This document shows positions 5,353 to 43,047 of a DNA stretch of 64,000 nt, in pieces. The stretch covers positions 6,882,001 to 6,946,000 of the forward strand of contig CM102285.1 of the NCBI GenBank assembly GCA_046563655.1. The letters run 5' to 3'. The notes beneath the pieces were generated by a model. It was not told the DNA's origin. It saw only the letters and a list, made by a program, of their open reading frames with translations, and made no database searches. This DNA comes from Yuukianura sp. NJ FZ-2021 (taxonomy: Eukaryota). A program made the position numbers and the translations under genes. How positions within the stretch are numbered: position 1 is the first letter of the stretch; each line of letters starts with the position of its first letter.

Positions 5353-6471
5353 AAAATTGCCATATCTCGCGTATTTTCGCTATAAAAGCCGACCGATATA
5401 AGAGTTCACGACTGCCTCGTTTGAGCATTCTGATTTTTTAAATTTTGAATTTTTCTGAGTACCGGTGTTGCCCGCCTGATATATTCCTATAGCCTCAAAT
5501 TTTTATCAACGTTTTTCCGTTGCACTCAAGTTGACAAATAGAAAGGGTCTTATATTACTAATTATGGCCCTAACCAAAAATTGCCATATCTCGCGTATTT
5601 TCGCTATAAAAGCCTAGCGATATAAGAGTTCACGACTGCCTCGTTTGAGCATTCTGATTTTTTAAATTTTGAATTTTTCTGAGTACCGGTGTTGCCCGCC
5701 TGATATATTCCTATAGCCTCAAATTTTTATCAACGTTTTTCCGTTGCACTCAAGTTGACAAATAGAAAGGGTCTTATATTACTAATTATGGCCCTAACCA
5801 AAAATTGCCATATCTCGCGAATTTTCGCTATAAAAGCCGAGCGATATAAGAGTTCACGACTGCCTCGTTTGAGCATTCTGATTTTTTAAATTTTAAATTT
5901 TTCTGAGTACCGGTGTTGCCCGCCTGATATATTCCTATAGCCTCAAATTTTTATCAACGTTTTTCCGTTGCACTCAAGTTGACAAATAGAAAGGGTCTTA
6001 TATTACTAATTATGGCCCTAACCAAAAATTGCCATATCTCGCGTATTTTCGCTATAAAAGCCGAGCGATATAAGAGTTCACGACTGCCTCGTTTGAGCAT
6101 TCTGATTTTTTAAATTTTAAATTTTTCTGAGTACCGGTGTTGCCCGCCTGATATATTCCTATAGCCTCAAATTTTTATCAACGTTTTTCCGTTGCACTCA
6201 AGTTGACAAATAGAAAGGGTCTTATATTACTAATTATGGCCCTAACCAAAAATTGCCATATCTCGCGAATTTTCGCTATAAAAGCCGAGCGATATAAGAG
6301 TTCACGACTGCCTCGTTTGAGCATTCTGATTTTTTAAATTTTAAATTTTTCTGAGTACCGGTGTTGCCCGCCTGATATATTCGTATAGCCTCAAATTTTT
6401 ATCAACGTTTTTCCGTTGCACTCAAGTTGACAAATAGAAAGGGTCTTATATTACTAATTATGGCCCTAACC
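5353..6471. repeat. 224-bp satellite, 5 units
   Basis: Head-to-tail copies with period 224. Confidence 0.95.
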
Positions 6472-6474
6472 AAA

Positions 6475-7522
6475 CAAGGTAGGGCAATGCTCAAGGGTTG
6501 AGCATAGGTCTTCTGGAGGGAGTTTGCAATTGATGCGACTTAAACCGGTCTGCCTCAAAACTGTAGAACTGAGAAACCGTTTTCATGTAGCTGATGCAAC
6601 AAAACGTAGCTCAAAATTTTCAGTGCATATGTGGGGCCTTTTTGTGCACAATTGCACCAAAATGTGAAAAAACCGTTTGCATAAGAATGTAGTTCAGCTT
6701 TAGTCCTGAACAGTTTTCACTCTCCTGAAAATTATTTTGATTCACAACATTTTTGCATCAAGTTGTTCTAAGTATGAACACAATTAGAAAATTCCATTAA
6801 ATCTGTTCATATAAATGCACAATTATTCTGATCTAATCACCATTCTAAAAGATGTATGTGCAGTTATTCTCCAGTATGCACAAATGTTGAAATAACAAGG
6901 TTCATTACCCAGCGTCAAAATATCTGCGCAATGTGACACTTATGTGCATCTACTTATAAGTGTGCACGAAATTAAACGTTGAGAGGCAGGTGTCAATTAT
7001 AGCTTCTTAAAAATCAAAATGCATGCACTATGTGTTAAGTCATGTCCATAAATAACAGAGTCGAATATCATTTGTTTAAGATCAAAATTATAAAAATTTC
7101 TTGTGAATGAAAATTTCAACCCTGCCAACCACTATTTAAGTATTACGAATTTAAGCCGCATTTTCTACCCTCTAATCCGTCTTAAGTTAACAACGTAACT
7201 AAACATACTGCCAGAAAATGACCAGATCAAAACTTCGTTGTTTAAATACATTTTGAGTGTAAACGAAACCAAGATGTGTTCGCCATGCCACGAAACTGCG
7301 GGTACGTAATGTAGCCGCTAACTTATACGTTGTTAATTTAACACTTTGAGTGCAATTTAGAGGTAGAGAAAACATTTAAGCCGTAGATAACCCCCCGACT
7401 GCGATGGGGCTTATGCTTCAGCGTAAAGGGTACTAAAAAACGTTACGGACAGACGGACAGACGGACAAAGTCGTATCAATAGTCTTCTTCAGCATGTCGT
7501 AGACATGCGTCTCCAGAAGACT
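6475..7522 (-). mobile_element. HINE family A, copy 3
   Basis: Same termini and microsatellite; interior shares segments with copy 1 and with copies 2/4/5. Confidence 0.85.
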
Positions 7523-8417
7523 AAAATTGCCATATCTCGCGTATTTTCGCTATAAAAGCCGAGCGATATAAGAGTTCACGACTGCCTCGTTTGAGCATTC
7601 TGATTTTTTAAATTTTAAATTTTTCTGAGTACCGGTGTTGCCCGCCTGATATATTCCTATAGCCTCAAATTTTTATCAACGTTTTTCCGTTGCACTCAAG
7701 TTGACAAATAGAAAGGGTCTTATATTACTAATTATGGCCCTAACCAAAAATTGCCATATCTCGCGTATTTTCGCTATAAAAGCCTAGCGATATAAGAGTT
7801 CACGACTGCCTCGTTTGAGCATTCTGATTTTTTAAATTTTGAGTGTTTCTGTATACCGGTGTTGCCCGCCTGATATATTCCTATAGCCTCAAATTTTTAT
7901 CAACGTTTTTCCGTTGCACTCAAGTTGACAAATAGAAAGGGTCTTATATTACTAATTATGGCCCTAACCAAAAATTGCCATATCTCGCGTATTTTCGCTA
8001 TAAAAGCCGAGCGATATAAGAGTTCACGACTGCCTCGTTTGAGCATTCTGATTTTTTAAATTTTAAATTTTTCTGAGTACCGGTGTTGCCCGCCTGATAT
8101 ATTCCTATAGCCTCAAATTTTTATCAACGTTTTTCCGTTGCACTCAAGTTGACAAATAGAAAGGGTCTTATATTACTAATTATGGCCCTAACCAAAAATT
8201 GCCATATCTCGCGTATTTTCCCTATAAAAGCCGAGCGATATAAGAGTTCACGACTGCCTCGTTTGAGCATTCTGATTTTTTAAATTTTGAATTTTTCTGA
8301 GTACCGGTGTTGCCCGCCTGATATATTCCTATAGCCTCAAATTTTTATCAACGTTTTTCCGTTGCACTCAAGTTGACAAATAGAAAGGGTCTTATATTAC
8401 TAATTATGGCCCTAACC
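7523..8417. repeat. 224-bp satellite, 4 units
   Basis: Period 224. Confidence 0.95.
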
Positions 8418-8818
8418 AAACAAGGTAGGGCAATGCTCAAGGGTTGAGCATAGGTCTTCTGGAGGGAGTTGGCAATTGATACGACTTTTAGACCAGCTGT
8501 CCACAAACCCGTTGAAGAAAAACGTCAAGAAACCGTTTTCACGGGATTTATGCAACGAAACGTCGCTCATAACTTTCAGTGCAGATGTGGGGCCTTTTTG
8601 TGCACAATTGCACCAAAATGTGAAAAAACCGTTTGCATAAGAATGTTGTTCAGCTTTAGCCCTGAACCGTTTTCACTCTCCTGAAAATTATTTTGGTTCA
8701 CAACATTTCTGCATCAAACTGTTAGCAAAATTTTTTTTAATTAAAAATTTATTAAACAGAATTCACAAACACCTGCCTAGGGCAGGTTGAAAAGGTTTAG
8801 AGTATATATTGAGAAAAG

Positions 8819-11800
8819 TTAGAGGTAAAAAATTTCGTCCAATCCTTTCCCCGGGGGAAGAGTGCCAAGGATTGATGCGGAGTTGCCACGTTGAATGGCG
8901 ATGCTAATCCGTTGAAGCAAAAAGTTGGTGGATCGGAGTTCACCGGTGACCTCGGCAAGACGTTGACCAATTGACCTGATGAGAATTAGTCCTTCGGCTC
9001 CGAAGACTCCCGAAGTTTCAACAGCAATGATGGAGACGATGAATTGATGATTTAGGTCTTGATACACTTTGTGTTTCTGGATTTCAGCCAAAGCGGCAGG
9101 ATAGCCACTTGAAGAAGAGGAAATGGAGAGGTACGAGTTGGCATAAGTGTCTCGGCAAGTGACGTCCCACACCAAACAACGTCCAGTATTCCAAGGTATC
9201 AAAGTGATGCCGTCGGGGCGTTTTCCATCAGAACGAGAACAACCTGGAGGTTCTTTCAGGCTAGGGACTCCGGCTGTTTGAAAGGCTCGAGCAATAATAT
9301 CGTTGATTGAACCATGTCTTGAGTGTCTTCCTGCACTTTTCGGACAACTCAGCCCGTGAAGACCGTCTTCGTTAACAGTTGCACCACAGCGACATTTGTG
9401 GGGTAGACATAAGTTGGTGCCAAGCCGCAAGGAGCACGAAATTCTGAAGCATTCGTTGGATAGAAGAGTCCCCAGTTGTGAAGAGGGTAGGGCCTTCAGC
9501 CAATCACCGGAATGAGCAGCAGCGGCAGCAATTAGTCTTGCTTTGTCAGTCAAAGTGGTGGAGTTGTTCAGCAGACTGGTGTAAATTTTCGATGATTTTA
9601 ATATCTCCCATTCCTTCTGAACTTTGTGATTAGATGGAAAATCAAAATCGTTGGACCATTTGAAAGTTGCTAAGTCGTACGATGGATCGAAAGGCGATAG
9701 GTTACCAGGTAGGAAGGAGGTGATTAGGTCTGCGCAGCTAAAGATTGAAGCCAAAAAACAGAGTGTAGCGCAATCGTTAGCTTGGCGGATTCCCAAACCT
9801 CCTTGTGCCACCGGCAGAGATGTTTGAATCCAGGCATTTTCAGAAAGGCTTATGTTGAGAATTTTTTCCAAAACTTTACGAAGAGAATCATCGTAGTCTT
9901 TCAGTAGGTCTTCTTCAAGAAATGATGGTGCGCAGCGAAGGAAGTATGTCAGTCTTGGAATCGAAATTGAAGCTCTTAGTAAGAAGAAAGCCACGTGAGT
10001 CGGAAGAGCTAGCAGCTTAGACGAAAGTCTGTTGAAATCGTCGGTCTTCATCTTCAAGATTCGTCGTCCAGAAGCTTTGGATAATGGGGCTCCGAGTAGT
10101 TCGGCGTCTTCTTCATTGCAGACTCGTATATCAGGTGCGAACGAAAGAAATGAGCTAGAGATGGCTCTGGACTCCATTTCATCGCCACCGATGACGATGA
10201 TCTCACATTTCTGTGTGTTAAGTTGTAGGCCAAAAGATGCTGCGTTGGTGGTGATATGCTGCAGATACTTCAGGACTATTTCAGGCTTGTCGGCAATGGT
10301 TGAATCGTCAAGATACCATACGTTAAACTCTGACTGGATTGCTGTTGCCAGTGGCTGGATGGTGATGGCGAAGAGGGCGGGACCGATCGGATCGCCTTGT
10401 TGGACTCCAAGGCTCGATTTGATTTTGGAAGAACCGTAAAATAAATTCGAGTCTGATGAATAAGCTTGATGGATGAAGTTATAGAAGTCGGGAATGAGAG
10501 ATTTAACAGAATCTAGCATTTTATCTCTTCTGATGAGGTTAAAGGCGTTCTTGAAATCAATCTTGAGCATGACCTTACTGGAAGAATGTGGAGAATTGAC
10601 GTAGATCCTAGCGGCGTGGGCTGCAGCTTCAGAACCGTTGTTGACTCCTACCCCAATTTGTACTGGGCTCAGGTATGAGACGATGTCTTTCATTGATCTC
10701 GATAAGACAAGCTTTGATGCTATCCGGCGCCAGGTCCATCCAATCGCGATAGGGCGGATCCCACCTTTTTTTTTCTGGAGTGCAATTAAAGAGGCACCGT
10801 AGAAGATCGGACGGATTACTTCAGGGATGGTGTTATTAATGATGAGGTTTGCAAGCTTCGTTATGGAAGACAGAAGTTTTTGACCGGAATCGCCAGTAAT
10901 TTTTGAAGTTAGCTCTTTCAGTACTTGAGGTCGCAGAGAGTCGAGACCTCCGGCCGAACCATTCGGAAAAGAAGAGATTGATTTTAGCAGTTCGAGTTCG
11001 TCGAAGACAACTTCAGATGATTGTTGACGATCTGGAAACTGGAGTGGTACTGGATGAGGAGGATGTAATCGTTCAAGAGCGTCTAATGTAGAAGAATCTT
11101 CATTGGCCATTGAGTCATCGGAACATAAAATACGAACTGCACCGTGAATGTCTCCATCAGCAAGTTTAGATTGAATAATGTGGGACTGAATGGCTGGATT
11201 TGATTGTGGAGTGCTTGAAGTTTCCAAGATTAACGTTGAAACGTTGAGAGCCGAAGAAGGTGACAAGGTGCAGATATTGGATTTTACCCAGGAGGTGAGG
11301 TTGGTGACACGGTCGGCCTTCTTAGGTAGACGAAACGCGAAGAATGGGAAAAGCAAGAGGTTTGACCATGACTCGGCGGAATTAGTTGAAGTCACTTCAT
11401 CAATGAAGTCTGAAAGCCTGGACGCGGCAGTGGTCCTGGCACCTTTAGGAACGTGCTTCATCGTGTGTGTCGATTGTTTGAGTTTTGCGAGGATGCTTCC
11501 TAGGTCTTCTTCTGTGGAATTGCGAGCAGGTGAAGAGCAAACATCCTTCCAAGCAATGCCAGAGTAGGACTGTTCAGAATGACGGCGACCTCCGGCACGA
11601 ACTGTCGACATTGAAGGGAATAACTTTCGCAGTTTGGTACCGAATGTGGTGTCAACGACTGGACGAATGTTGAGAGAGTTGCAAAATTGATGGTATTTGG
11701 ATTTGACGTCTAATTTTCGAATTGAGCCACTGGCGGACGAAATGATGTTATCAGCAATCCATTCATCTGTTATTTTGCGATTCTGGAGTGTTCTAGTAAG

Positions 11801-12577
11801 AGAAGGAGTATTGGAAACGTGTTGATTGGTAATTGGGACTGAGCATGAACTTGAAGCCATAACATTGATTGGAGCTGATGCAGCACGGCAACCGAAGTCA
11901 TTTGACGCTGGAGCTGGCACAATACAGGAACCGGAGTCATTTGGAGATGGAAATGATTCAATTGCAGCTGGGGTTGAGTTAATGCAGAAACCGGAATCAT
12001 TTGAAACTGGAACTGACTCCTTTGAAGTTGGAGCATAGTCATTTGAAGCTGGAACTGATTCAATACAGGAACCGGGATCATTTGAAGCTGGAACTGACAC
12101 AATACAGGAACCGGGGTCATTTGAAGCTGGAACTGATTCAACACAGGAACTATAGTCGTTTGAAGCTGGAACTGATTCAATACAGGAACCATAGTCGCTT
12201 GAAGCTGGAACTGATTCAATACAGGAGCCGTAGTCATTTGAAGCTGGAACTGATTCAATATAGGAACAATAGTCATTTGAAGCTGGAGCTGATTCAATAC
12301 AGGAACCATAGTCATTTGAAGCTGGAACTGATTCAATACAGGAACCGTAGTCATTTGAAGCTGACGCTGGAATGATGATGAAATCACTTGATGCTGGAAC
12401 GGATGTAATACGGGACCCGGAGGAACTTGATGCTGGAACTGGTGAAGAAACTGCATTCTGGGCTGGAGCTGGTGACACTTTAGAGATTGTTTGCACAGAT
12501 GAAGAATCAGGAGCTGGAGTCAAGGAGATAGATGTTGATTTCATTTTACTTCGATTTTTTAATTTTCGTTGAGTCAT
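8819..12577 (-). CDS. Single-ORF retrotransposon protein (~1252 aa): 13-aa repeats, RFX-like winged helix, reverse transcriptase, Cys/His knuckle, PD-(D/E)xK RLE
   Basis: Uninterrupted ORF (track starts at GTG 12712, first ATG 12577). RT motifs GIRPIAIG, KIDFKNAFN, GVQQGDPIGP, WYLDD; CRCG...HGLSC...RHSRH; RLE KRPDG...VWDVT...AEIQK. Confidence 0.92.
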   Translation of the reverse strand: MTQRKLKNRSKMKSTSISLTPAPDSSSVQTISKVSPAPAQNAVSSPVPASSSSGSRITSVPASSDFIIIPASASNDYGSCIESVPASNDYGSCIESAPASNDYCSYIESVPASNDYGSCIESVPASSDYGSCIESVPASNDYSSCVESVPASNDPGSCIVSVPASNDPGSCIESVPASNDYAPTSKESVPVSNDSGFCINSTPAAIESFPSPNDSGSCIVPAPASNDFGCRAASAPINVMASSSCSVPITNQHVSNTPSLTRTLQNRKITDEWIADNIISSASGSIRKLDVKSKYHQFCNSLNIRPVVDTTFGTKLRKLFPSMSTVRAGGRRHSEQSYSGIAWKDVCSSPARNSTEEDLGSILAKLKQSTHTMKHVPKGARTTAASRLSDFIDEVTSTNSAESWSNLLLFPFFAFRLPKKADRVTNLTSWVKSNICTLSPSSALNVSTLILETSSTPQSNPAIQSHIIQSKLADGDIHGAVRILCSDDSMANEDSSTLDALERLHPPHPVPLQFPDRQQSSEVVFDELELLKSISSFPNGSAGGLDSLRPQVLKELTSKITGDSGQKLLSSITKLANLIINNTIPEVIRPIFYGASLIALQKKKGGIRPIAIGWTWRRIASKLVLSRSMKDIVSYLSPVQIGVGVNNGSEAAAHAARIYVNSPHSSSKVMLKIDFKNAFNLIRRDKMLDSVKSLIPDFYNFIHQAYSSDSNLFYGSSKIKSSLGVQQGDPIGPALFAITIQPLATAIQSEFNVWYLDDSTIADKPEIVLKYLQHITTNAASFGLQLNTQKCEIIVIGGDEMESRAISSSFLSFAPDIRVCNEEDAELLGAPLSKASGRRILKMKTDDFNRLSSKLLALPTHVAFFLLRASISIPRLTYFLRCAPSFLEEDLLKDYDDSLRKVLEKILNISLSENAWIQTSLPVAQGGLGIRQANDCATLCFLASIFSCADLITSFLPGNLSPFDPSYDLATFKWSNDFDFPSNHKVQKEWEILKSSKIYTSLLNNSTTLTDKARLIAAAAAHSGDWLKALPSSQLGTLLSNECFRISCSLRLGTNLCLPHKCRCGATVNEDGLHGLSCPKSAGRHSRHGSINDIIARAFQTAGVPSLKEPPGCSRSDGKRPDGITLIPWNTGRCLVWDVTCRDTYANSYLSISSSSSGYPAALAEIQKHKVYQDLNHQFIVSIIAVETSGVFGAEGLILIRSIGQRLAEVTGELRSTNFLLQRISIAIQRGNSASILGTLPPGKGLDEIFYL
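11978..12361 (-). repeat. 39-bp coding tandem repeat (PASNDYGSCIESV)n, about 9-10 copies
   Basis: Repeated TTTGAAGCTGGAACTGATTCAATACAGGAACC.. on plus strand. Confidence 0.9.
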
Positions 12578-13560
12578 ATTTGTTGCTATGGAGATGAGTT
12601 GAAGGATCCGCTGGTGTTGAAAACTTAGATAGTTGACGGTGACTGGACTTCCAAGTGACAAAACAGGACCGGACAGGCTGAACTGGCAACGTATTTTCTT
12701 GAAACCTGTCACGAGTTGATCAGTAGACGAAGTGCTTTAGGACGATATGAGCAAAAGTTGGGTAGATCACAAATTAATGTCTTAAAAAACTGGAAAATTG
12801 AGGAGCAAAATTTCGTGTTTTCCAAACTTTTGTTTTGGCATAATTGTTAGCAAAATTATTTGGTGGACAATTGAATGGCTTCGCGGAACAATTATTATTG
12901 TTCTCCAGTATGCACAAAATTTGAAATAACAACGCCCATTACCCAGCGTCAAAATAACTGTACAATTTTACATTTGTGGAATAAGTGTTCAACATGCACA
13001 AAATTGAACGTTGTGGAGTAGGGATCGAATATAGCTTCTATAAAATCAAAATCGGTTCAAATAAATGCACCATGTGTTAAATTAAGTGCATAAGTTATAA
13101 ACTCGAATATCCCTTGTTTATAATCAAAATTACGAAAATTTGTTGCAAAAGCAAATTTGAACCCTGCCAATCACTGTTTGCATGTTACGAATTTAAGCCG
13201 GATTTTTACCCTCTAATTAGTCTTAATTTAACAACGTACCTAAACATAATATCAGAAAATGAGAAGATCAAAACTTCGTTGTTTAAATATATTTTGAGTG
13301 CAATGCAGACCTAACACAGAAATTTTGAGGACTTAAGAAACTGCAACGCGAAGCAGCCGCATACTTTGACGTTGTTAACTTAACACTTTGAGTGCAATGT
13401 AGTGGTAGAGAAAACACTTGAGCCATAGATAACCCCCCGACTGCGATGGGGCTTATGTTTCAATGGAAAGAATCCTAAAAAAGGTGACAGACAGACGGAC
13501 AGACAAAGTCGTATCAATAGTCTTCTTCAGCACGTCGTAGACGTGCGTCTCCAGAAGACT

Positions 13561-14007
13561 AAAATTGCCATATCTCGCGTATTTTCGCTATAAAAGCCGA
13601 GCGATATAATAGTTCACGACTGCCTCGTTTGAGCATTCTGATTTTTTAAATTTTAAATTTTTCTGAGTACCGGTGTTGCCCGCCTGATATATTCCTATAG
13701 CCTCAAATTTTTATCAACGTTTTTCCGTTGCACTCAAGTTGACAAATAGAAAGGGTCTTATATTACTAATTATGGCCCTAACCAAAAATTGCCATATCTC
13801 GCGTATTTTCGCTATAAAAGCCTAGCGATATAAGAGTTCACGACTGCCTCGTTTGAGCATTCTGATTTTTTAAATTTTGAATGTTTCTGTATACCGGTGT
13901 TGCCCGCCTGATATATTCCTATAGCCTCAAATTTTTATCAACGTTTTTCCGTTGCACTCAAGTTGACAAATAGATAGGGTCTTATATTACTAATTATGGC
14001 CCTAACC
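13561..14007. repeat. 224-bp satellite, 2 units
   Basis: Period 224. Confidence 0.95.
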
Positions 14008-14010
14008 AAA

Positions 14011-15033
14011 CAAGGTAGGGCAATGCTCAAGGGTTGAGCATAGGTCTTCTGGAGGGAGTTGGCAATTGATACGACTTTTAGACCAGCTGTCCACAAACCC
14101 GTTGAAGAAAAACGTCAAGAAACCGTTTTCACGGGATTTATGCAACGAAACGTCGCTCATAACTTTCAGTGCAGATGTGGGGCCTTTTTGTGCACAATTG
14201 CAGCAAAATGTGAAAAAACCGTTTGCATAAGAATGTTGTTCAGCTTTAGCCCTGAACCGTTTTCACTCTCCTGAAAATTATTTTGGTTCACAACATTTCT
14301 GCATCAAACTGTTAGCAAAATTATTTGGTGGACAATTGAATGGCTTCGCGGAACAATTATTATTGTTCTCCAGTATGCACAAAATTTGAAATAACAACGC
14401 CCATTACCCAGCGTCAAAATAACTGTACAATTTTACATTTGTGGAATAAGTGTTCAACATGCACAAAATTGAACGTTGTGGAGTAGGGATCGAATATAGC
14501 TTCTATAAAATCAAAATCGGTTCAAATAAATGCACCATGTGTTAAATTAAGTGCATAAGTTATAAACTCGAATATCCCTTGTTTATAATCAAAATTACGA
14601 AAATTTGTTGCAAAAGCAAATTTGAACCCTGCCAATCACTGTTTGCATGTTACGAATTTAAGCCGGATTTTTACCCTCTAATTAGTCTTAATTTAACAAC
14701 GTACCTAAACATAATATCAGAAAATGAGAAGATCAAAACTTCGTTGTTTAAATATATTTTGAGTGCAATGCAGACCTAACACAGAAATTTTGAGGACTTA
14801 AGAAACTGCAACGCGAAGCAGCCGCATACTTTGACGTTGTTAACTTAACACTTTGAGTGCAATGTAGTGGTAGAGAAAACACTTGAGCCATAGATAACCC
14901 CCCGACTGCGATGGGGCTTATGTTTCAATAGAAAGAATCCTAAAAAAGGTGACAGACAGACAGACAGACGGACAGACAAAGTCGTATCAATAGTCTTCTT
15001 CAGCACGTCGTAGACGTGCGTCTCCAGAAGACT
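14011..15033 (-). mobile_element. HINE family A, copy 5 (intact)
   Basis: Both subTIRs, 5' double stem, GTCY microsatellite and 3' stem-loop present. Confidence 0.9.
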
Positions 15034-18000
15034 AAAATTGCCATATCTCGCGTATTTTCGCTATAAAAGCCGAGCGATATAAGAGTTCACGACTGCCTCG
15101 TTTGAGCATTCTGATTTTTTAAATTTTAAATTTTTCTGAGTACCGGTGTTGCCCGCCTGATATATTCCTATAGCCTCAAATTTTTATCAACGTTTTTCCG
15201 TTGCACTCAAGTTGACAAATAGAAAGGGTCTTATATTACTAATTATGGCCCTAACCAAAAATTGCCATATCTCGCGTATTTTCGCTATAAAAGCCGAGCG
15301 ATATAAGAGTTCACGACTGCCTCGTTTGAGCATTCTGATTTTTTAAATTTTAAATTTTTCTGAGTACCGGTGTTGCCCGCCTGATATATTCCTATAGCCT
15401 CAAATTTTTATCAACGTTTTTCCGTTGCACTCAAGTTGACAAATAGAAAGGGTCTTATATTACTAATTATGGCCCTAACCAAAAATTGCCATATCTCGCG
15501 TATTTTCGCTATAAAAGCCGAGCGATATAAGAGTTCACGACTGCCTCGTTTGAGCATTCTGATTTTTTAAATTTTAAATTTTTCTGAGTACCGGTGTTGC
15601 CCGCCTGATATATTCCTATAGCCTCAAATTTTTATCAACGTTTTTCCGTTGCACTCAAGTTGACAAATAGAAAGGGTCTTATATTACTAATTATGGCCCT
15701 AACCAAAAATTGCCATATCTCGCGAATTTTCGCTATAAAAGCCGAGCGATATAAGAGTTCACGACTGCCTCGTTTGAGCATTCTGATTTTTTAAATTTTA
15801 AATTTTTCTGAGTACAGGTGTTGCCCACCTGATATATTCCTATAGCCTCAAATTTTTATCAACGTTTTTCCGTTGCACTCAAGTTGACAAATAGAAAGGG
15901 TCTTATATTACTAATTATGGCCCTAACCAAAAATTGCCATATCTCGCGTATTTTCCCTATAAAAGCCGAGCGATATAAGAGTTCACGACTGCCTCGTTTG
16001 AGCATTCTGATTTTTTAAATTTTGAATTTTTCTGAGTACCGGTGTTGCCCGCCTGATATATTCCTATAGCCTCAAATTTTTATCAACGTTTTTCCGTTGC
16101 ACTCAAGTTGACAAATAGAAAGGGTCTTATATTACTAATTATGGCCCTAACCAAAAATTGCCATATCTCGCGTATTTTCGCTATAAAAGCCGAGCGATAT
16201 AAGAGTTCACGACTGCCTCGTTTGAGCATTCTGATTTTTTAAATTTTAAATTTTTCTGAGTACCGGTGTTGCCCGCCTGATATATTCCTATAGCCTCAAA
16301 TTTTTATCAACGTTTTTCCGTTGCACTCAAGTTGACAAATAGAAAGGGTCTTATATTACTAATTATGGCCCTAACCAAAAATTGCCATATCTCGCGTATT
16401 TTCGCTATAAAAGCAGAGCGATATAAGAGTTCACGACTGCCTCGTTTGAGCATTCTGATTTTTTAAATTTTAAATTTTTCTGAGTACCGGTGTTGCCCGC
16501 CTGATATATTCCTATAGCCTCAAATTTTTATCAACGTTTTTCCGTTGCACTCAAGTTGACAAATAGAAAGGGTCTTATATTACTAATTATGGCCCTAACC
16601 AAAAATTGCCATATCTCGCGTATTTTCGCTATAAAAGCCGAGCGATATAAGAGTTCACGACTGCCTCGTTTGAGCATTCTGATTTTTTAAATTTTAAATT
16701 TTTCTGAGTACCGGTGTTGCCCGCCTGATATATTCCTATAGCCTCAAATTTTTATCAACGTTTTTCCGTTGCACTCAAGTTGACAAATAGAAAGGGTCTT
16801 ATATTACTAATTATGGCCCTAACCAAAAATTGCCATATCTCGCGTATTTTCGCTATAAAAGCAGAGCGATATAAGAGTTCACGACTGCCTCGTTTGAGCA
16901 TTCTGATTTTTTAAATTTTAAATTTTTCTGAGTACCGGTGTTGCCCGCCTGATATATTCCTATAGCCTCAAATTTTTATCAACGTTTTTCCGTTGCACTC
17001 AAGTTGACAAATAGAAAGGGTCTTATATTACTAATTATGGCCCTAACCAAAAATTGCCATATCTCGCGTATTTTCGCTATAAAAGCCGAGCGATATAAGA
17101 GTTCACGACTGCCTCGTTTGAGCATTCTGATTTTTTAAATTTTAAATTTTTCTGAGTACCGGTGTTGCCCGCCTGATATATTCCTATAGCCTCAAATTTT
17201 TATCAACGTTTTTCCGTTGCACTCAAGTTGACAAATAGAAAGGGTCTTATATTACTAATTATGGCCCTAACCAAAAATTGCCATATCTCGCGTATTTTCC
17301 CTATAAAAGCCGAGCGATATAAGAGTTCACGACTGCCTCGTTTGAGCATTCTGATTTTTTAAATTTTGAATTTTTCTGAGTACCGGTGTTGCCCGCCTGA
17401 TATATTCCTATAGCCTCAAATTTTTATCAACGTTTTTCCGTTGCACTCAAGTTGACAAATAGAAAGGGTCTTATATTACTAATTATGGCCCTAACCAAAA
17501 ATTGCCATATCTCGCGTATTTTCGCTATAAAAGCCGAGCGATATAAGAGTTCACGACTGCCTCGTTTGAGCATTCTGATTTTTTAAATTTTAAATTTTTC
17601 TGAGTACCGGTGTTGCCCGCCTGATATATTCCTATAGCCTCAAATTTTTATCAACGTTTTTCCGTTGCACTCAAGTTGACAAATAGAAAGGGTCTTATAT
17701 TACTAATTATGGCCCTAACCAAAAATTGCCATATCTCGCGTATTTTCGCTATAAAAGCAGAGCGATATAAGAGTTCACGACTGCCTCGTTTGAGCATTCT
17801 GATTTTTTAAATTTTAAATTTTTCTGAGTACCGGTGTTGCCCGCCTGATATATTCCTATAGCCTCAAATTTTTATCAACGTTTTTCCGTTGCACTCAAGT
17901 TGACAAATAGAAAGGGTCTTATATTACTAATTATGGCCCTAACCAAAAATTGCCATATCTCGCGAATTTTCGCTATAAAAGCCGAGCGATATAAGAGTTC

Positions 18001-21000
18001 ACGACTGCCTCGTTTGAGCATTCTGATTTTTTAAATTTTAAATTTTTCTGAGTACCGGTGTTGCCCGCCTGATATATTCCTATAGCCTCAAATTTTTATC
18101 AACGTTTTTCCGTTGCACTCAAGTTGACAAATAGAAAGGGTCTTATATTACTAATTATGGCCCTAACCAAAAATTGCCATATCTCGCGTATTTTCCCTAT
18201 AAAAGCCGAGCGATATAAGAGTTCACGACTGCCTCGTTTGAGCATTCTGATTTTTTAAATTTTAAATTTTTCTGAGTACCGGTGTTGCCCGCCTGATATA
18301 TTCCTATAGCCTCAAATTTTTATCAACGTTTTTCCGTTGCACTCAAGTTGACAAATAGAAAGGGTCTTATATTACTAATTATGGCCCTAACCAAAAATTG
18401 CCATATCTCGCGTATTTTCGCTATAAAAGCCGAGCGATATAAGAGTTCACGACTGCCTCGTTTGAGCATTCTGATTTTTTAAATTTTAAATTTTTCTGAG
18501 TACCGGTGTTGCCCGCCTGATATATTCCTATAGCCTCAAATTTTTATCAACGTTTTTCCGTTGCACTCAAGTTGACAAATAGAAAGGGTCTTATATTACT
18601 AATTATGGCCCTAACCAAAAATTGCCATATCTCGCGAATTTTCGCTATAAAAGCCGAGCGATATAAGAGTTCACGACTGCCTCGTTTGAGCATTCTGATT
18701 TTTTAAATTTTAAATTTTTCTGAGTACAGGTGTTGCCCACCTGATATATTCCTATAGCCTCAAATTTTTATCAACGTTTTTCCGTTGCACTCAAGTTGAC
18801 AAATAGAAAGGGTCTTATATTACTAATTATGGCCCTAACCAAAAATTGCCATATCTCGCGTATTTTCCCTATAAAAGCCGAGCGATATAAGAGTTCACGA
18901 CTGCCTCGTTTGAGCATTCTGATTTTTTAAATTTTGAATTTTTCTGAGTACCGGTGTTGCCCGCCTGATATATTCCTATAGCCTCAAATTTTTATCAACG
19001 TTTTTCCGTTGCACTCAAGTTGACAAATAGAAAGGGTCTTATATTACTAATTATGGCCCTAACCAAAAATTGCCATATCTCGCGTATTTTCGCTATAAAA
19101 GCCGAGCGATATAAGAGTTCACGACTGCCTCGTTTGAGCATTCTGATTTTTTAAATTTTAAATTTTTCTGAGTACCGGTGTTGCCCGCCTGATATATTCC
19201 TATAGCCTCAAATTTTTATCAACGTTTTTCCGTTGCACTCAAGTTGACAAATAGAAAGGGTCTTATATTACTAATTATGGCCCTAACCAAAAATTGCCAT
19301 ATCTCGCGTATTTTCGCTATAAAAGCAGAGCGATATAAGAGTTCACGACTGCCTCGTTTGAGCATTCTGATTTTTTAAATTTTAAATTTTTCTGAGTACC
19401 GGTGTTGCCCGCCTGATATATTCCTATAGCCTCAAATTTTTATCAACGTTTTTCCGTTGCACTCAAGTTGACAAATAGAAAGGGTCTTATATTACTAATT
19501 ATGGCCCTAACCAAAAATTGCCATATCTCGCGAATTTTCGCTATAAAAGCCGAGCGATATAAGAGTTCACGACTGCCTCGTTTGAGCATTCTGATTTTTT
19601 AAATTTTAAATTTTTCTGAGTACCGGTGTTGCCCGCCTGATATATTCCTATAGCCTCAAATTTTTATCAACGTTTTTCCGTTGCACTCAAGTTGACAAAT
19701 AGAAAGGGTCTTATATTACTAATTATGGCCCTAACCAAAAATTGCCATATCTCGCGTATTTTCCCTATAAAAGCCGAGCGATATAAGAGTTCACGACTGC
19801 CTCGTTTGAGCATTCTGATTTTTTAAATTTTAAATTTTTCTGAGTACCGGTGTTGCCCGCCTGATATATTCCTATAGCCTCAAATTTTTATCAACGTTTT
19901 TCCGTTGCACTCAAGTTGACAAATAGAAAGGGTCTTATATTACTAATTATGGCCCTAACCAAAAATTGCCATATCTCGCGTATTTTCGCTATAAAAGCCG
20001 AGCGATATAAGAGTTCACGACTGCCTCGTTTGAGCATTCTGATTTTTTAAATTTTAAATTTTTCTGAGTACCGGTGTTGCCCGCCTGATATATTCCTATA
20101 GCCTCAAATTTTTATCAACGTTTTTCCGTTGCACTCAAGTTGACAAATAGAAAGGGTCTTATATTACTAATTATGGCCCTAACCAAAAATTGCCATATCT
20201 CGCGAATTTTCGCTATAAAAGCCGAGCGATATAAGAGTTCACGACTGCCTCGTTTGAGCATTCTGATTTTTTAAATTTTAAATTTTTCTGAGTACCGGTG
20301 TTGCCCGCCTGATATATTCCTATAGCCTCAAATTTTTATCAACGTTTTTCCGTTGCACTCAAGTTGACAAATAGAAAGGGTCTTATATTACTAATTATGG
20401 CCCTAACCAAAATTTTTCTGAGTACAGGTGTTGCCCACCTGATATATTCCTATAGCCTCAAATTTTTATCAACGTTTTTCCGTTGCACTCAAGTTGACAA
20501 ATAGAAAGGGTCTTATATTACTAATTATGGCCCTAACCAAAAATTGCCATATCTCGCGTATTTTCCCTATAAAAGCCGAGCGATATAAGAGTTCACGACT
20601 GCCTCGTTTGAGCATTCTGATTTTTTAAATTTTGAATTTTTCTGAGTACCGGTGTTGCCCGCCTGATATATTCCTATAGCCTCAAATTTTTATCAACGTT
20701 TTTCCGTTGCACTCAAGTTGACAAATAGAAAGGGTCTTATATTACTAATTATGGCCCTAACCAAAAATTGCCATATCTCGCGTATTTTCGCTATAAAAGC
20801 CGAGCGATATAAGAGTTCACGACTGCCTCGTTTGAGCATTCTGATTTTTTAAATTTTAAATTTTTCTGAGTACCGGTGTTGCCCGCCTGATATATTCCTA
20901 TAGCCTCAAATTTTTATCAACGTTTTTCCGTTGCACTCAAGTTGACAAATAGAAAGGGTCTTATATTACTAATTATGGCCCTAACCAAAAATTGCCATAT

Positions 21001-23897
21001 CTCGCGTATTTTCGCTATAAAAGCCGAGCGATATAAGAGTTCACGACTGCCTCGTTTGAGCATTCTGATTTTTTAAATTTTAAATTTTTCTGAGTACCGG
21101 TGTTGCCCGCCTGATATATTCCTATAGCCTCAAATTTTTATCAACGTTTTTCCGTTGCACTCAAGTTGACAAATAGAAAGGGTCTTATATTACTAATTAT
21201 GGCCCTAACCAAAAATTGCCATATCTCGCGAATTTTCGCTATAAAAGCCGAGCGATATAAGAGTTCACGACTGCCTCGTTTGAGCATTCTGATTTTTTAA
21301 ATTTTAAATTTTTCTGAGTACCGGTGTTGCCCGCCTGATATATTCCTATAGCCTCAAATTTTTATCAACGTTTTTCCGTTGCACTCAAGTTGACAAATAG
21401 AAAGGGTCTTATATTACTAATTATGGCCCTAACCAAAAATTGCCATATCTCGCGTATTTTCCCTATAAAAGCCGAGCGATATAAGAGTTCACGACTGCCT
21501 CGTTTGAGCATTCTGATTTTTTAAATTTTAAATTTTTCTGAGTACCGGTGTTGCCCGCCTGATATATTCCTATAGCCTCAAATTTTTATCAACGTTTTTC
21601 CGTTGCACTCAAGTTGACAAATAGAAAGGGTCTTATATTACTAATTATGGCCCTAACCAAAAATTGCCATATCTCGCGTATTTTCGCTATAAAAGCCGAG
21701 CGATATAAGAGTTCACGACTGCCTCGTTTGAGCATTCTGATTTTTTAAATTTTAAATTTTTCTGAGTACCGGTGTTGCCCGCCTGATATATTCCTATAGC
21801 CTCAAATTTTTATCAACGTTTTTCCGTTGCACTCAAGTTGACAAATAGAAAGGGTCTTATATTACTAATTATGGCCCTAACCAAAAATTGCCATATCTCG
21901 CGAATTTTCGCTATAAAAGCCGAGCGATATAAGAGTTCACGACTGCCTCGTTTGAGCATTCTGATTTTTTAAATTTTAAATTTTTCTGAGTACCGGTGTT
22001 GCCCGCCTGATATATTCCTATAGCCTCAAATTTTTATCAACGTTTTTCCGTTGCACTCAAGTTGACAAATAGAAAGGGTCTTATATTACTAATTATGGCC
22101 CTAACCAAAAATTGCCATATCTCGCGTATTTTCGCTATAAAAGCCGAGCGATATAAGAGTTCACGACTGCCTCGTTTGAGCATTCTGATTTTTTAAATTT
22201 TAAATTTTTCTGAGTACCGGTGTTGCCCGCCTGATATATTCCTATAGCCTCAAATTTTTATCAACGTTTTTCCGTTGCACTCAAGTTGACAAATAGAAAG
22301 GGTCTTATATTACTAATTATGGCCCTAACCAAAAATTGCCATATCTCGCGAATTTTCGCTATAAAAGCCGAGCGATATAAGAGTTCACGACTGCCTCGTT
22401 TGAGCATTCTGATTTTTTAAATTTTAAATTTTTCTGAGTACAGGTGTTGCCCACCTGATATATTCCTATAGCCTCAAATTTTTATCAACGTTTTTCCGTT
22501 GCACTCAAGTTGACAAATAGAAAGGGTCTTATATTACTAATTATGGCCCTAACCAAAAATTGCCATATCTCGCGTATTTTCCCTATAAAAGCCGAGCGAT
22601 ATAAGAGTTCACGACTGCCTCGTTTGAGCATTCTGATTTTTTAAATTTTGAATTTTTCTGAGTACCGGTGTTGCCCGCCTGATATATTCCTATAGCCTCA
22701 AATTTTTATCAACGTTTTTCCGTTGCACTCAAGTTGACAAATAGAAAGGGTCTTATATTACTAATTATGGCCCTAACCAAAAATTGCCATATCTCGCGTA
22801 TTTTCGCTATAAAAGCCGAGCGATATAAGAGTTCACGACTGCCTCGTTTGAGCATTCTGATTTTTTAAATTTTAAATTTTTCTGAGTACCGGTGTTGCCC
22901 GCCTGATATATTCCTATAGCCTCAAATTTTTATCAACGTTTTTCCGTTGCACTCAAGTTGACAAATAGAAAGGGTCTTATATTACTAATTATGGCCCTAA
23001 CCAAAAATTGCCATATCTCGCGTATTTTCGCTATAAAAGCCGAGCGATATAAGAGTTCACGACTGCCTCGTTTGAGCATTCTGATTTTTTAAATTTTAAA
23101 TTTTTCTGAGTACCGGTGTTGCCCGCCTGATATATTCCTATAGCCTCAAATTTTTATCAACGTTTTTCCGTTGCACTCAAGTTGACAAATAGAAAGGGTC
23201 TTATATTACTAATTATGGCCCTAACCAAAAATTGCCATATCTCGCGTATTTTCCCTATAAAAGCCGAGCGATATGAGAGTTCACGACTGCCTCGTTTGAG
23301 CATTCTGATTTTTTAAATTTTGAATTTTTCTGAGTACCGGTGTTGCCCGCCTGATATATTCCTATAGCCTCAAATTTCTATCAACGTTTTTCCGTTGCAC
23401 TCAAGTTGACAAATAGAAAGGGTCTTATATTACTAATTATGGCCCTAACCAAAAATTGCCATATCTCGCGTATTTTCCTATAAAAGCCGAGCGATATAAG
23501 AGTTCACGACTGCCTCGTTTGAGCATTCTGATTTTTTAAATTTTGAATTTTTCTGAGTACCGGTGTTGCCCGCCTGATATATTCCTATAGCCTCAAATTT
23601 TTATCAACGTTTTTCCGTTGCACACAAGTTGACAAATAGAAAGGGTCTTATATTACTAATTATGGCCCTAACCAAAAATTGCCATATCTCGCGTATTTTC
23701 CCTATAAAAGCCGAGCGATATAAGAGTTCACGACTGCCTCGTTTGAGCATTCTGATTTTTTAAATTTTGAATTTTTCTGAGTACCGGTGTTGCCCGCCTG
23801 ATATATTCCTATAGCCTCAAATTTTTATCAACGTTTTTCCGTTGCACTCAAGTTGACAAATAGAAAGGGTCTTATATTACTAATTATGGCCCTAACC
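15034..23897. repeat. 224-bp tandem satellite, 40 units (one internally deleted at ~20410), with higher-order variant pattern
   Basis: TTGCCATATC recurs at 15038, 15262, 15486, 15710...; units differ at only a handful of diagnostic sites. Confidence 0.97.
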
Positions 23898-24057
23898 AAA
23901 CAAGGTAGGGCAATGCTCAAGGGTTGAGCATAGGTCTTCTGGATCGAGTTGACAATTGATACGACCTTCAAAATAACGGCGACGATGAGAAAAGGAATTC
24001 CACTGAAATTTTATTTCAAACATACAAGAAAGATAAACTAAGGAATAGGCATTTTAA

Positions 24058-36484: not shown

Positions 36485-36800
36485 TGTACGATGTGCTGCG
36501 GAGTCCCGTTGTTGTTCCAGTTGCCGGTAGTCTTCATTCTCCCGTAGTTGACGATGTGCTGCGGAGTCCCGTTTTTTGTTCCATTTGTCGGTAGTCTTCA
36601 TTCTCCCGTAGTTGACGATGTGCTGCGGAGCTACGTTGTTGTTCCATTTGTCGGTAGTCTTCATTCTCCCGTAGTTGACGATGTGCTGCGGAGCTACGTT
36701 GTTGTTCCATTTGTCGGTAGTCTTTATTCTCCCGTAGTTGACGATGTGCTGCGGAGCTACGTTGTTGTTCCAGTTGGCGGTAGTCTTCATTCTCCCGAAG
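36485..36800 (-). repeat. 63-bp coding repeat (RENEDYRQ(L/M)EQQR(S/D)SAAHRQL)
   Basis: About 5 tandem copies in the Rep N-terminus. Confidence 0.9.
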
Positions 36801-37095
36801 TAGATGATGAGCTTCAGTATTTCGTTCCCGTTCTTCTTGACGTCGCTCTTCATCTTGCCGGACAACTTGGTGAGCAATGCTGTCTCTGCCCTGTTCTTCT
36901 TGCCTGCTAGATTCGGCTGCCCGTAAGAACTGTCGTCGTTGCCTCGCTCTGGCTCGTTGTTGTCGACTTGACATAATTGTATCTACTAAAACAATGAAAT
37001 AAGACGGAATTCGGTATAGCTTGGTATTAAGAAATAAGATCAGAAACCATATTCTTACCCGATGAAACTGTATAAACTTGCGCCTAAGATTAAAC

Positions 37096-42045: not shown

Positions 42046-43047
42046 AATAATAGCTTCGCTATTGTAATAAACCGGTTGTAAACCGCGCATAACGAAATAG
42101 CTCAAGCAGATAGACGGTTTCCCCCCAGGTGGGGAATGTGGAGTTACCCCCGGGGAGTGGGGTTGGGTTCTCCCTAGTTTACTTCCGCTCCCAGGGAGAG
42201 TGGGGGTGAGTTGCCCCACTTCTCGGCCCATCCCCCCACGAAGTGGGGGTGTGTTCCCCCACTTTTTCGCTCCGCACCCCAGGGGGCGTGGGGGAGTGTT
42301 CCCCTACTTTCCCACGTCCATCCACCGGAGAAGCGGGAGTGTGTTCCCCGGGGAAAAGTGGTGAGTTCCCCGGGGGGAGAGAGGGTGGGTTCCCCGGGGG
42401 AAAGGTGGTGAGTTCCCCGGGGGGAGAGAGGGTGGGTACCCCGGGGGAAGAGAGGGTGGGTTCCCCGGAGCAAGAGAGGGTGGGTTCCCCGGGGGAACAG
42501 GGTGTGGGTTCCCCGGAAAAGAGTCGGTGGGTTTCCCGGATGAGAGGGGTGTGTTCCCGGGAGACTGGGTTCCCCGGGGGAAGGGCGTGGGTTCCCCCGG
42601 GGTGTGGGGAGGGTTTCCCCGGGGGTGTGAGTGTGGGTCACCCGAGGGAGTGAAGATGAGTCACCAGGCACTGTGGGTTGGGTTGCTCCCCGCTTCCCAG
42701 CTAGCAGGACGTTAATATGAAAAAAAAAAGTTGACCTTTGACCCGGCAGCAGGTCACTTGGGGTCATGTGGTATAAACAAAAGTTGTTGCTCTCGACGTG
42801 ATGAACAACTTTTGTAGAGGTCGTTTTCCGGGTTACCGGGGAAGAAACCGGTTGACCTTGACCTTTGACCCGGAAAAAGATCATAGACCCCAAAAACAAA
42901 AATAAACTTGATCTGGAGGCCGTCATGGGATGCCCATTGGTGAAAACCCGGGTAGAATCGGTCCAGTAGTTTCCGAGATAATTGAGTTGGACAGACGGAC
43001 GGACAGACAGACATGAATCAGATTATTAAATAGCTTTCGCTATTTAG
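42046..43047 (-). mobile_element. Family B HINE/DINE-1-like element with G-rich central tandem repeats
   Basis: TAGC-hairpins at both ends (~42049, 43027), GTCY microsatellite ~42990-43012, shared core, GGGTTCCCCGGGGG-type repeats 42120-42650. Confidence 0.8.

Follow-up and report, generated by a model that had tools for sequence, protein, structure and literature searches.

An RFX-type winged-helix domain in an intact R2-like retrotransposon of Yuukianura sp., a probable target-DNA-binding module

Positions 8733-12844 (minus strand) of the window, the 64,000-nucleotide stretch of Yuukianura sp. NJ FZ-2021 DNA analysed here, hold a non-LTR retrotransposon of the restriction-like-endonuclease (RLE), R2-like type that is intact and was inserted recently. 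Its protein carries a true member of the RFX DNA-binding-domain family, apart from which the element was ordinary in all respects. The best joint explanation, which we consider probable, is that the element is R2-like, intact and recent, that its RFX domain was captured early, and that this domain would serve as the N-terminal module binding the target DNA.

The limits of the element were defined by alignment to a neighbouring, uninterrupted copy of the same spacer, in which the flank 8110-8736 matched 13700-14326 at 98.7% and the flank 12842-13827 matched 14307-15300 at 98.8%. The insertion and its noncoding parts were as follows:

8733..12844, minus strand: full retrotransposon insertion, 4112 bp, with a single ORF; its flanks align to the uninterrupted paralogous spacer
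12845..12857, minus strand: target-site duplication (TSD), 5′ copy, AATTTTGCTAACA, an exact 13-mer
8720..8732, minus strand: target-site duplication, 3′ copy, an exact 13-bp repeat of the 5′ copy
14299..14331, minus strand: empty paralogous site within the adjacent copy of the spacer, 33 junction-spanning nt found once and uninterrupted
12578..12844, minus strand: 5′ UTR of 267 nt preceding the first ATG, which is residue 54 in the stop-to-stop frame; from the sequence
8733..8818, minus strand: 3′ UTR of 86 nt containing AATAAA, a small hairpin and, at its end, A6; from sequence and fold

The hallmarks of such an insertion were all observed, namely the lack of LTRs, an A-rich 3′ end and the TSD, whose 13-mer occurred exactly only three times, at the two junctions and in the empty site (chance expectation of 0.49 at up to one mismatch). 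Moreover, the empty-site joint was included in contigs of sequencing runs, and contigs of two runs diverged from the window at 12833, 11 nt within the 5′ end of the element. The empty paralogous site lay about 1.5 kb from the insertion. The target was a spacer between 224-bp satellite arrays, and no second copy or fragment of the element was found elsewhere in the 64,000-nt window. No rRNA or other Rfam family matched in the window at gathering scores, nor in 8500-13050 at E≤1. An HDV-like ribozyme was likewise not found in or around the element by Rfam search, and the 5′ UTR was therefore described as devoid of one. The fold of the 3′ UTR reached –14.4 kcal/mol (z –2.83), with equally good folds in 4 of 200 shuffles.

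The element was read from a stop-to-stop minus-strand frame of 1305 codons (8819-12736), whose translation contained the peptide quoted in the original prediction (DEWIADNI...). The encoded protein presented, in this order, a Ser/Pro-rich repeat, the RFX winged helix, an N-terminal extension, the reverse transcriptase (RT), a CCHC motif and the RLE:

8819..12577, minus strand: ORF from first ATG to stop, 1252 codons plus stop, by translation
12034..12363, minus strand: tandem repeat with a 39-bp unit in 8.5 copies, coding for the Ser/Pro-rich 13-aa unit SVPASNDYGSCIE, by Tandem Repeats Finder and translation
11546..11773, minus strand: RFX-type winged-helix DNA-binding domain, residues 322-397, by Pfam, PDB matches and an AF2 model
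10193..10777, minus strand: reverse transcriptase core RVT_1, residues 654-848, with YLDD at 808, Pfam 70 bits
9344..9394, minus strand: CCHC motif, residues 1115-1131, between RT and endonuclease, by regular expression
9017..9328, minus strand: restriction-like endonuclease region, residues 1137-1240, with RPD1175, D1191 and K1221, by conservation and structure

The tandem-repeat array, placed N-terminal to the RFX domain, was 255 nt shorter in contigs of three of the four runs (joint 12028>12284). The catalytic parts were strongly conserved in a 50-sequence alignment (A2, numbered as P0001 minus 309), in which D501 and D502 of the RT, C822 of the CCHC motif and E853, P854, D866, D882 and K912 of the RLE region were invariant, and C806, C808 and H818 nearly so. 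The features of RLE-type elements were thus all present: a reverse transcriptase with YxDD, followed towards the C-terminus by a CCHC motif and an endonuclease of PD-(D/E)xK type. The original prediction of an intact RLE retrotransposon is borne out by these RLE residues, together with the exact 13-bp TSD and the uninterrupted frame. No APE or further Pfam domain was detected, the search of the whole protein at E≤10 returning RVT_1 and RFX only. The absence of a C2H2 finger before the RT, also predicted, agreed with this search and with the finding that a C2H2-spacing expression matched only beside the C-terminal CCHC, and a Myb domain was not found at the N-terminus by Pfam or regular expression. 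The predicted model of 996 aa had a pLDDT of 92, and its best seven Foldseek matches were R2 proteins, with E-values from 8e-21 to 3e-18. The R2 chains superposed on residues 133-989 of the model over 690-738 residues (Z 20.7-23.1) and ended at 988-989. In the ESM Atlas, only generic RVT_1 clusters were recovered, with a best score of 0.90.

The identification of the RFX domain was supported by sequence profiles and by structure. The span first proposed for it (11546..11770) agreed within one codon with the Pfam match, and its location upstream of the RT was as predicted. The profile search proposed with the original prediction gave 43.3 bits for RFX_DNA_binding (PF02257) in the whole protein (E 5.7e-11, spanning positions 3-78 of the 79 in the profile) and 48.3 bits in the isolated 127 aa (E 1.6e-12), both above the curated gathering cut-off of 27 bits. 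In the PDB sequences, phmmer found only two matches at E≤1, RFX5 (8zjr_M, E 2.6e-9) and the RFX1 DNA-binding domain (1dp7_P, E 1.2e-3). The structure prediction proposed alongside the profile search pointed the same way, with a pLDDT of 85 overall and 96-97 across the core. This model superposed on 8zjr_M with a target TM-score of 0.90 and an rmsd of 1.1 Å over 80 columns, and on 1dp7_P with a TM-score of 0.88 and an rmsd of 1.4 Å over 74 columns. Both were RFX DNA-binding domains and the only Foldseek matches at E≤0.001, the third-best standing at E 0.16, and this likeness to host RFX was partly built in, since the alignment behind the model contained host RFX sequences. The signature residues W27, Y49, G67, F74, P75, R81, G83 and R85 were present, while K68 was replaced, the lysine of the FGK motif being shifted in the window element (FGTK).

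The RFX domain was not restricted to this copy. A domain HMM recovered it in 12 of 121 family proteins, and 8 of 36 family proteins carried it above the Pfam cut-off; all the RFX-bearing proteins fell inside one 21-row clade (SH-aLRT 98), whose members, from springtails and soil metagenomes, were 42-53% identical to the window protein across 98-100% of the query. The clade included two proteins of Folsomia candida (OXA58286.1 / A0A226ENY2 and OXA39608.1 / A0A226D463) and the metagenome or Logan proteins P0002-P0009, P0016 and P0018. The domain scored below the Pfam cut-off in P0003, P0007 and P0018 and was absent from 9 of the 21 rows, some of which were truncated gene models; within the clade it has therefore decayed or been lost several times. 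Two metagenome loci also carried it. The 80 metagenome loci listed were mostly contigs the size of an element, about 3-4 kb, with scant flank, and among them only L001 and L044 matched well into the RFX part, both with a stop or frameshift. A word-indexed search with the RFX-domain region alone gave no match among 80 candidates, and one with a TE-domain profile at longer lengths gave seven, three of them previously in the set, the sensitivity of both being bounded by the word index. The automatic names of the relatives conflicted, comprising SLACS, R2DM and R1.

The original prediction had also proposed a domain swap in a young element. The change of domain stands, because C2H2, OTU or PHD-only N-termini occur in the sister lineages (UCH was also found among them), which indicates that N-terminal domains were exchanged within the family. 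The part that did not hold is a swap peculiar to this young copy, since the domain is common to a clade only 42-53% identical to it; the capture was therefore old. RFX was captured once, early in the clade, and not by a recent swap. In a donor tree of 138 RFX domains and 80 columns, with 68 of its 135 inner branches open, all the transposable-element rows lay with RFX5_N-type and multi-RFX rows, and with none of the ten BCD-type rows, on the 94-row side of a split carrying no support value.

By analogy with R2, and from its N-terminal position, the most likely role of the RFX domain is in targeting. In R2, the target DNA is bound by zinc fingers and a Myb domain at the N-terminus (PMC7650587, PMC13586686). 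In their stead, the RFX domain would be the N-terminal target-DNA-binding module and would anchor the protein to a short DNA site close to where the element inserts. The bottom strand would then be nicked by the RLE, and the RT would use this nick as primer to copy the RNA from its A-rich 3′ end; another nick, offset by 13 bp, would account for the 13-bp duplication. The RFX-coding segment itself moved with the element, because the TSD-bounded insertion includes it and an empty paralogous site is present. Among the 23 differences listed between the window copy and contigs of the four runs, 11 were synonymous and 12 were not, a synonymous share exceeding the neutral-decay expectation for those listed, from a table 25 rows longer. 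The hexamer GTTGCC, which we take to be the canonical RFX half-site, was observed 74 times in the window against about 24 expected, an excess due to one copy per 224-bp satellite unit. No copy was present within about 400 bp of either junction, which speaks against the targeting role, as do the repeated decay or loss of the domain in its clade, the varying wing of the TE copies and the shifted FGK lysine of the window element. The candidate GCTAAC inside the TSD matched the half-site at five of six positions and was too weak to count.

The strongest alternative, which we nevertheless regard as unlikely, is that the RFX domain is functional without selecting the site. It could tether the protein to chromatin or generally to X-box-like sites of the host, perhaps together with the PHD finger in the relatives that have one, or act on the DNA or RNA of the element itself, for instance during transcription or the assembly of RNPs, with the cut site set by the RLE, the CCHC motif and the linker. 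PHD fingers are readers of histone tails, and one stands ahead of the RFX domain both in P0004 and P0006, where it passes the Pfam cut-off, and in P0005, P0009 and L044, where it scores below it. Moreover, a lone winged helix reads only a short site. The presence of GTTGCC in the 5′ UTR of the element (12685-12690) and in each surrounding 224-bp satellite unit would also suit such a tether, but the hexamer is common by chance, as the expected count above indicates, and the N-terminal position of the RFX domain is the same as that of the target-binding domains of R2, which favours site selection.

It is quite improbable that the domain survives in the window element as an inherited relic that now does little or nothing, as its repeated decay or loss in the clade and its variable wing sequence might suggest. 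Against this, the window domain scored 43-48 bits and matched 76 of the 79 profile positions, its core was confidently folded in the prediction, and it was 47-49% identical to that of P0002, compared with 53% for the whole protein. Furthermore, two of the three run-contig variants listed inside the RFX domain were synonymous. A fusion artefact, by which a host RFX exon was joined to a retrotransposon through insertion or misassembly, is exceedingly improbable. No observation in its favour was found, the frame is single and uninterrupted within an insertion that has a TSD and an empty counterpart, and the identical domain order recurs in 11 other proteins and two metagenome loci from independent sources. 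Run contigs from two studies also match the sequence between RFX and RT at ≥99%, among them X1 record 4, which covers 10248-11808 with four differences.

Beyond site selection by the RFX domain in this element, a wider proposal is offered tentatively, with somewhat less than even confidence: in an R2-like clade of springtails and small soil animals, zinc-finger/Myb targeting may have given way to a captured RFX domain, often with a PHD finger, that directs insertion to repeat-associated sites. The spacer between 224-bp satellite arrays, occupied by the one copy examined, is the candidate site of this kind. If true, this would represent natural retargeting of an RLE retrotransposon by exchange of its DNA-binding module, and RFX plus PHD would form a compact reader of DNA plus chromatin. 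The N-terminus is modular in nature, because the family exchanged its module for RFX, with PHD, C2H2, OTU and UCH in sister lineages. RLE retrotransposons are a model for site-specific RNA-templated insertion and have been engineered for gene insertion, their targeting being credited in reviewed descriptions to zinc fingers and Myb domains (PMC13580325, PMC13586686). If the RFX domain selects the site, it would offer a small, structurally understood reader for studying how the choice of a target and the nicking step are linked. To our knowledge, no mobile element would have been connected with the RFX family before.

As for whether the architecture was already catalogued, this was the case at the database level only, OXA39608.1 / A0A226D463 having been automatically named 'RFX-type winged-helix domain-containing protein', while full-text searches returned no publication that describes RFX or PHD domains in RLE retrotransposons. 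Fell et al. 2025 (Nature 642:1080) reportedly provides an inventory of RLE elements, which may list such architectures.

Among known systems, the R2 proteins (Bombyx mori, 8gh6; turtle and finch, 9nl2 and 9nl3) gave the best whole-chain structural matches and share with the window element a single ORF, an N-terminal DNA-binding module, an N-terminal extension, the RT, the CCHC motif and a C-terminal RLE. R2 carries C2H2 zinc fingers and Myb and inserts in 28S rDNA (PMC7650587), whereas the window element has an RFX winged helix and a spacer target, with no rRNA in the window and no HDV-like ribozyme found; it therefore lacks the 28S rDNA insertion and the N-terminal C2H2, with or without Myb, of the R2 clade. 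Their sequence likeness was also low (phmmer E 4.4e-7, 14-18% identity). Classical CRE-clade members insert into spliced-leader genes. The 'CRE-like' label of the original prediction is a putative one, for which the single hint is that the relative P0041 (Nymphon striatum) was automatically named 'SLACS'. CRE and SLACS share the RLE and the single ORF with the window element, but the window element has neither an N-terminal C2H2 nor a spliced-leader or other RNA gene at its target according to Rfam, its target being a satellite-associated spacer.

The RFX transcription factors (RFX5, 8zjr_M, and RFX1 on X-box DNA, 1dp7_P) have the domain family and fold in common with the element, whose domain was nearer to RFX5 than to RFX1 by sequence, as the phmmer E-values above indicate. 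The TE copies retain the family positions W, Y, G, FP and R-x-G-x-R. Unlike the host matches, the element lacks the partner domains RFX5_N and BCD/dimerisation. An additional Trp following strand 3 (W77, A4 consensus) is conserved among the TE copies but not in the mostly host-derived alignment A3. The wing of the TE copies varies in sequence; in RFX1, the wing reads DNA. The same RFX-RT-RLE order as in the window element was found in the PHD-RFX-RT-RLE proteins of Folsomia candida and in P0002-P0009, P0016 and P0018; several of these clade relatives carry a PHD finger before the RFX domain, at the place where the window element carries its 13-aa tandem repeat instead.

The retrotransposon on the minus strand of the window is an intact R2-like (RLE-type) non-LTR element that carries an RFX-type winged-helix domain upstream of its reverse transcriptase (RT). 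Its features and setting are listed below, with residues numbered along the stop-to-stop frame.

5353-8420, 13561-14010 and 15034-23900: 224-bp satellite arrays, 97-99% matching inside each array
8733-12844, minus strand: insertion, 4112 bp (duplication and empty-site alignment)
8819-12736, minus strand: open frame, stop to stop, 1305 codons (translation)
11546-11773, residues 322-397, minus strand: RFX_DNA_binding (Pfam)
Residues 654-848, minus strand: RVT_1 (Pfam, 70.2 bits)
Residue 808, minus strand: YLDD of the RT (motif in protein)
Residues 1115-1131, minus strand: CCHC (motif in protein)
RPD1175, D1191 and K1221, minus strand: endonuclease residues (motif in protein)
Within the element: 39-bp coding repeat, a 13-aa Ser/Pro-rich tandem repeat in the place of a PHD finger (repeat detection and translation)

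The Pfam scan of the whole frame scored RFX_DNA_binding (PF02257) at 43.3 bits over profile positions 3-78 of 79, and the isolated 127-aa stretch containing it reached 48.3 bits (E 1.6e-12), against a curated cut-off of 27 bits. Only RVT_1 and RFX_DNA_binding were recognized in the frame at E<=10. A sequence search of all PDB chains returned just two distinct sequences at E<=1, RFX5 (8zjr_M, E 2.6e-9) and the RFX1 DNA-binding domain (DBD; 1dp7_P, E 1.2e-3), bearing out the original prediction of such a domain upstream of the RT, whose peptide and position were also correct. When aligned with 19 short proteins bearing the RFX domain, the window sequence kept all the conserved family positions (W, Y, G, FP, R-x-G-x-R), FGTK instead of FGK being the sole departure. 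The AlphaFold2 model of residues 300-420 (pLDDT 85 overall, 96-97 in the core) had a predicted helix-strand-helix-helix-strand-strand topology, and the structural check suggested at the outset yielded a winged helix superposing on RFX5 (TM 0.90, rmsd 1.1 Å, 80 columns) and on the RFX1 DBD (TM 0.88, rmsd 1.4 Å, 74 columns), the only Foldseek matches in the PDB at E<=0.001, with the third-ranked at E 0.16; this likeness depends partly on sequence likeness, because host RFX sequences were present in the alignment behind the model. On every feature tested, the domain belongs to the RFX DBD family. A Trp following strand 3 (W77 in the consensus of A4, the alignment of RFX domains from retrotransposons) was nearly invariant across these TE domains, and its position showed no conservation in A3, a mostly host-derived alignment.

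The frame, whose first ATG is residue 54, is flanked by a 5′ UTR of 267 nt and a 3′ UTR of 86 nt, the latter with AATAAA, a terminal A6 and a small hairpin whose fold was equalled by 4 of 200 shuffles (z -2.83). The endonuclease aspartates and lysine were invariant, and the CCHC positions mostly nearly invariant, in an alignment of 50 relatives. Neither an APE domain (Pfam at E<=10) nor a second ORF was found in the element, there was no Rfam match in or around it and hence no HDV-like ribozyme, and the 64-kb window held no further copies or fragments. The open frame, YLDD, CCHC, RPD1175/D1191/K1221 and the R2-like fold of the model agree with the earlier claim of an intact RLE element, which on every feature tested is an RLE-type non-LTR retrotransposon.

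An uninterrupted copy of a ~1-kb spacer, 1.5 kb off, matched both flanks of the element, the left (8110-8736) pairing with 13700-14326 at 98.7% and the right (12842-13827) with 14307-15300 at 98.8%. Junction alignment and an exact-word search revealed a 13-bp duplication, AATTTTGCTAACA, at 8720-8732 and 12845-12857, found elsewhere in the window solely at the empty site (14310-14322); the duplication at both junctions, together with the empty site, defines the insertion limits. The element occupies one of ~5 spacer copies interleaved with the satellite arrays, and the exact target sequence was kept in just one other copy. In the sequencing runs, word depth in the satellite and spacer exceeded that in the element by factors of tens to hundreds. 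Each 224-bp satellite unit contains one GTTGCC hexamer, the RFX half-site consensus. Elsewhere in the window, an 831-codon open frame (32650-35142, minus strand; Helitron_like_N, 68.6 bits) probably belongs to a Helitron transposon, and tandem repeats lie at 36488-36813 (63 bp x 5.2) and, within a GC-rich stretch, at 42339-42558 (24/47 bp x 9.4/4.7).

The RFX-bearing retrotransposon is real and common to a clade. A query with residues 310-1305 against a 5.8-billion-protein collection scored 7998 candidates, 287 of them at E<=0.001, and within the best 120 of these the closest relatives were 53% and 52% identical. Among 36 relatives scanned with Pfam, RFX exceeded the cut-off in eight (P0002, P0004, P0005, P0006, P0008, P0009, P0016 and P0019) and fell below it in two (P0003, 18.9 bits; P0018, 20.6 bits). 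P0004 and P0006 also had a PHD finger N-terminal to RFX that passed the PHD cut-off, and P0005 and P0009 had one that did not. Remoter members carried PHD alone, C2H2 fingers, a C-terminal UCH or an N-terminal OTU, which in one of two cases came with a BED-like finger. Deubiquitinase-type domains, either UCH/USP after the endonuclease (P0043, P0081 and P0095, three separate clusters) or OTU at the N-terminus (P0028 and P0064, two clusters), were observed in family members that may be true element ORFs or gene-model fusions. With a domain HMM from our own alignment, RFX was detected in 12 of 121 family proteins (P0001, the window protein, to P0009, plus P0016, P0018 and P0019). In a maximum-likelihood tree of 50 rows and 900 columns (quick search, midpoint root only), built on the region C-terminal to RFX, all RFX rows fell within one 21-row clade (SH-aLRT 98), where the window element clustered with P0002 and P0003 (SH-aLRT 98); the domains of the sister clade were C2H2 or OTU. 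Nine of the 21 rows had no RFX, some being gene models cut N-terminally. Folsomia candida contributed two clade entries, OXA58286.1 and OXA39608.1 / A0A226D463. Of 599 candidate metagenome stretches, 468 encoded a relative, and among the 80 kept, loci L001 and L044 reached well into the RFX part of the query and had the RFX domain themselves (49.1 and 43.8 bits), L044 with a sub-threshold PHD as well.

An exhaustive phmmer search of 1.84 billion representatives with the 121-aa domain gave 99 matches at E<=0.001, of which P0002 and P0009 were RT-bearing entries. PF02257 was present in 31 of the 32 scanned with Pfam and RT in none; P0144 was rejected as a low-complexity false hit. The scanned RFX proteins were host-type, with RFX5_N or BCD, or carried 2-5 RFX domains. 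The top scorers showed this unusual latter architecture (P0122-P0128, P0132, P0138 and P0141; 490-1090 aa, 2-5 tandem RFX domains, no other strong Pfam domain). The short matches P0130, P0131, P0133, P0136 and P0213 look like fragments of RFX-bearing elements, and P0133 extends into the conserved region after RFX in the retrotransposon family.

Taken together, these data indicate that RFX was captured once, early in the clade, and later retained by some lineages while eroding in others, and that the PHD finger was lost from, or never present in, the window element. The 39-bp repeat is length-variable, since contigs in three of four runs omitted 255 nt at 12028-12284. The window frame is intact, its duplication is exact, and contigs from sequencing runs of two studies, which bear two organism labels, match the element at about 99% or more; in run X2, for example, there were 6 differences over 1325 nt, 4 over 1264 nt and 1 over 666 nt. 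The 23 in-frame differences listed comprised 11 synonymous and 12 nonsynonymous changes, a synonymous share above the neutral-decay expectation, although the full table of differences has 25 rows beyond those listed. In two runs, a contig connects the two flanks with 33 different letters where the insertion would lie, which we read as a diverged empty spacer. Contigs of X1 and X2 diverge from the window sequence at position 12833, 11 nt short of the element's 5′ end, which implies at least one other copy or 5′ context differing from the first 11 nt here; they continue with 77 and 206 unlike letters.

The domain order, catalytic residues and 13-bp duplication were observed, and the R2-like fold comes from a model. 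We infer the function of the RFX domain: it would bind DNA close to the insertion point, by analogy with the N-terminal zinc fingers and Myb that bind the R2 target (PMC7650587, PMC13586686). The RLE would then nick the bottom strand, the RT would use this nick to prime on the RNA's A-rich 3′ end, and a second nick 13 bp off would make the duplication. No GTTGCC half-site was found within ~400 bp of either junction and the wing differs between TE copies, both of which count against a simple RFX-like specificity.

The proposed novelty of the RFX-RT-RLE architecture did not hold for the databases, where it already stands under automatic names (OXA39608.1 / A0A226D463, 'RFX-type winged-helix domain-containing protein' in UniRef), but it is apparently undescribed in print: full-text searches brought up no account of an RFX domain in any retrotransposon, and it might be among the architectures inventoried by Fell et al. 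2025. On the original CRE-like label, the automatic names of relatives conflict (SLACS, R2DM, the latter given to OXA58286.1, and R1). For the Utopia group, the variable domains described are zinc fingers, RNase H and Ulp1 protease (PMC4640811). Lacking an rDNA target and ZF/Myb, the element was not assigned to the R2 clade. The model of residues 310-1305 (pLDDT 92.0, pTM 0.84) had R2 retrotransposon proteins as its top seven Foldseek matches (E 7.9e-21 to 2.9e-18). The best alignments to LINE-1 ORF2p reached Z 27.6 but mostly ended near model residue 747, whereas in a second-look structural alignment the R2 chains (690-738 residues aligned, Z 20.7-23.1) spanned 133-989 and thus took in the C-terminal endonuclease.
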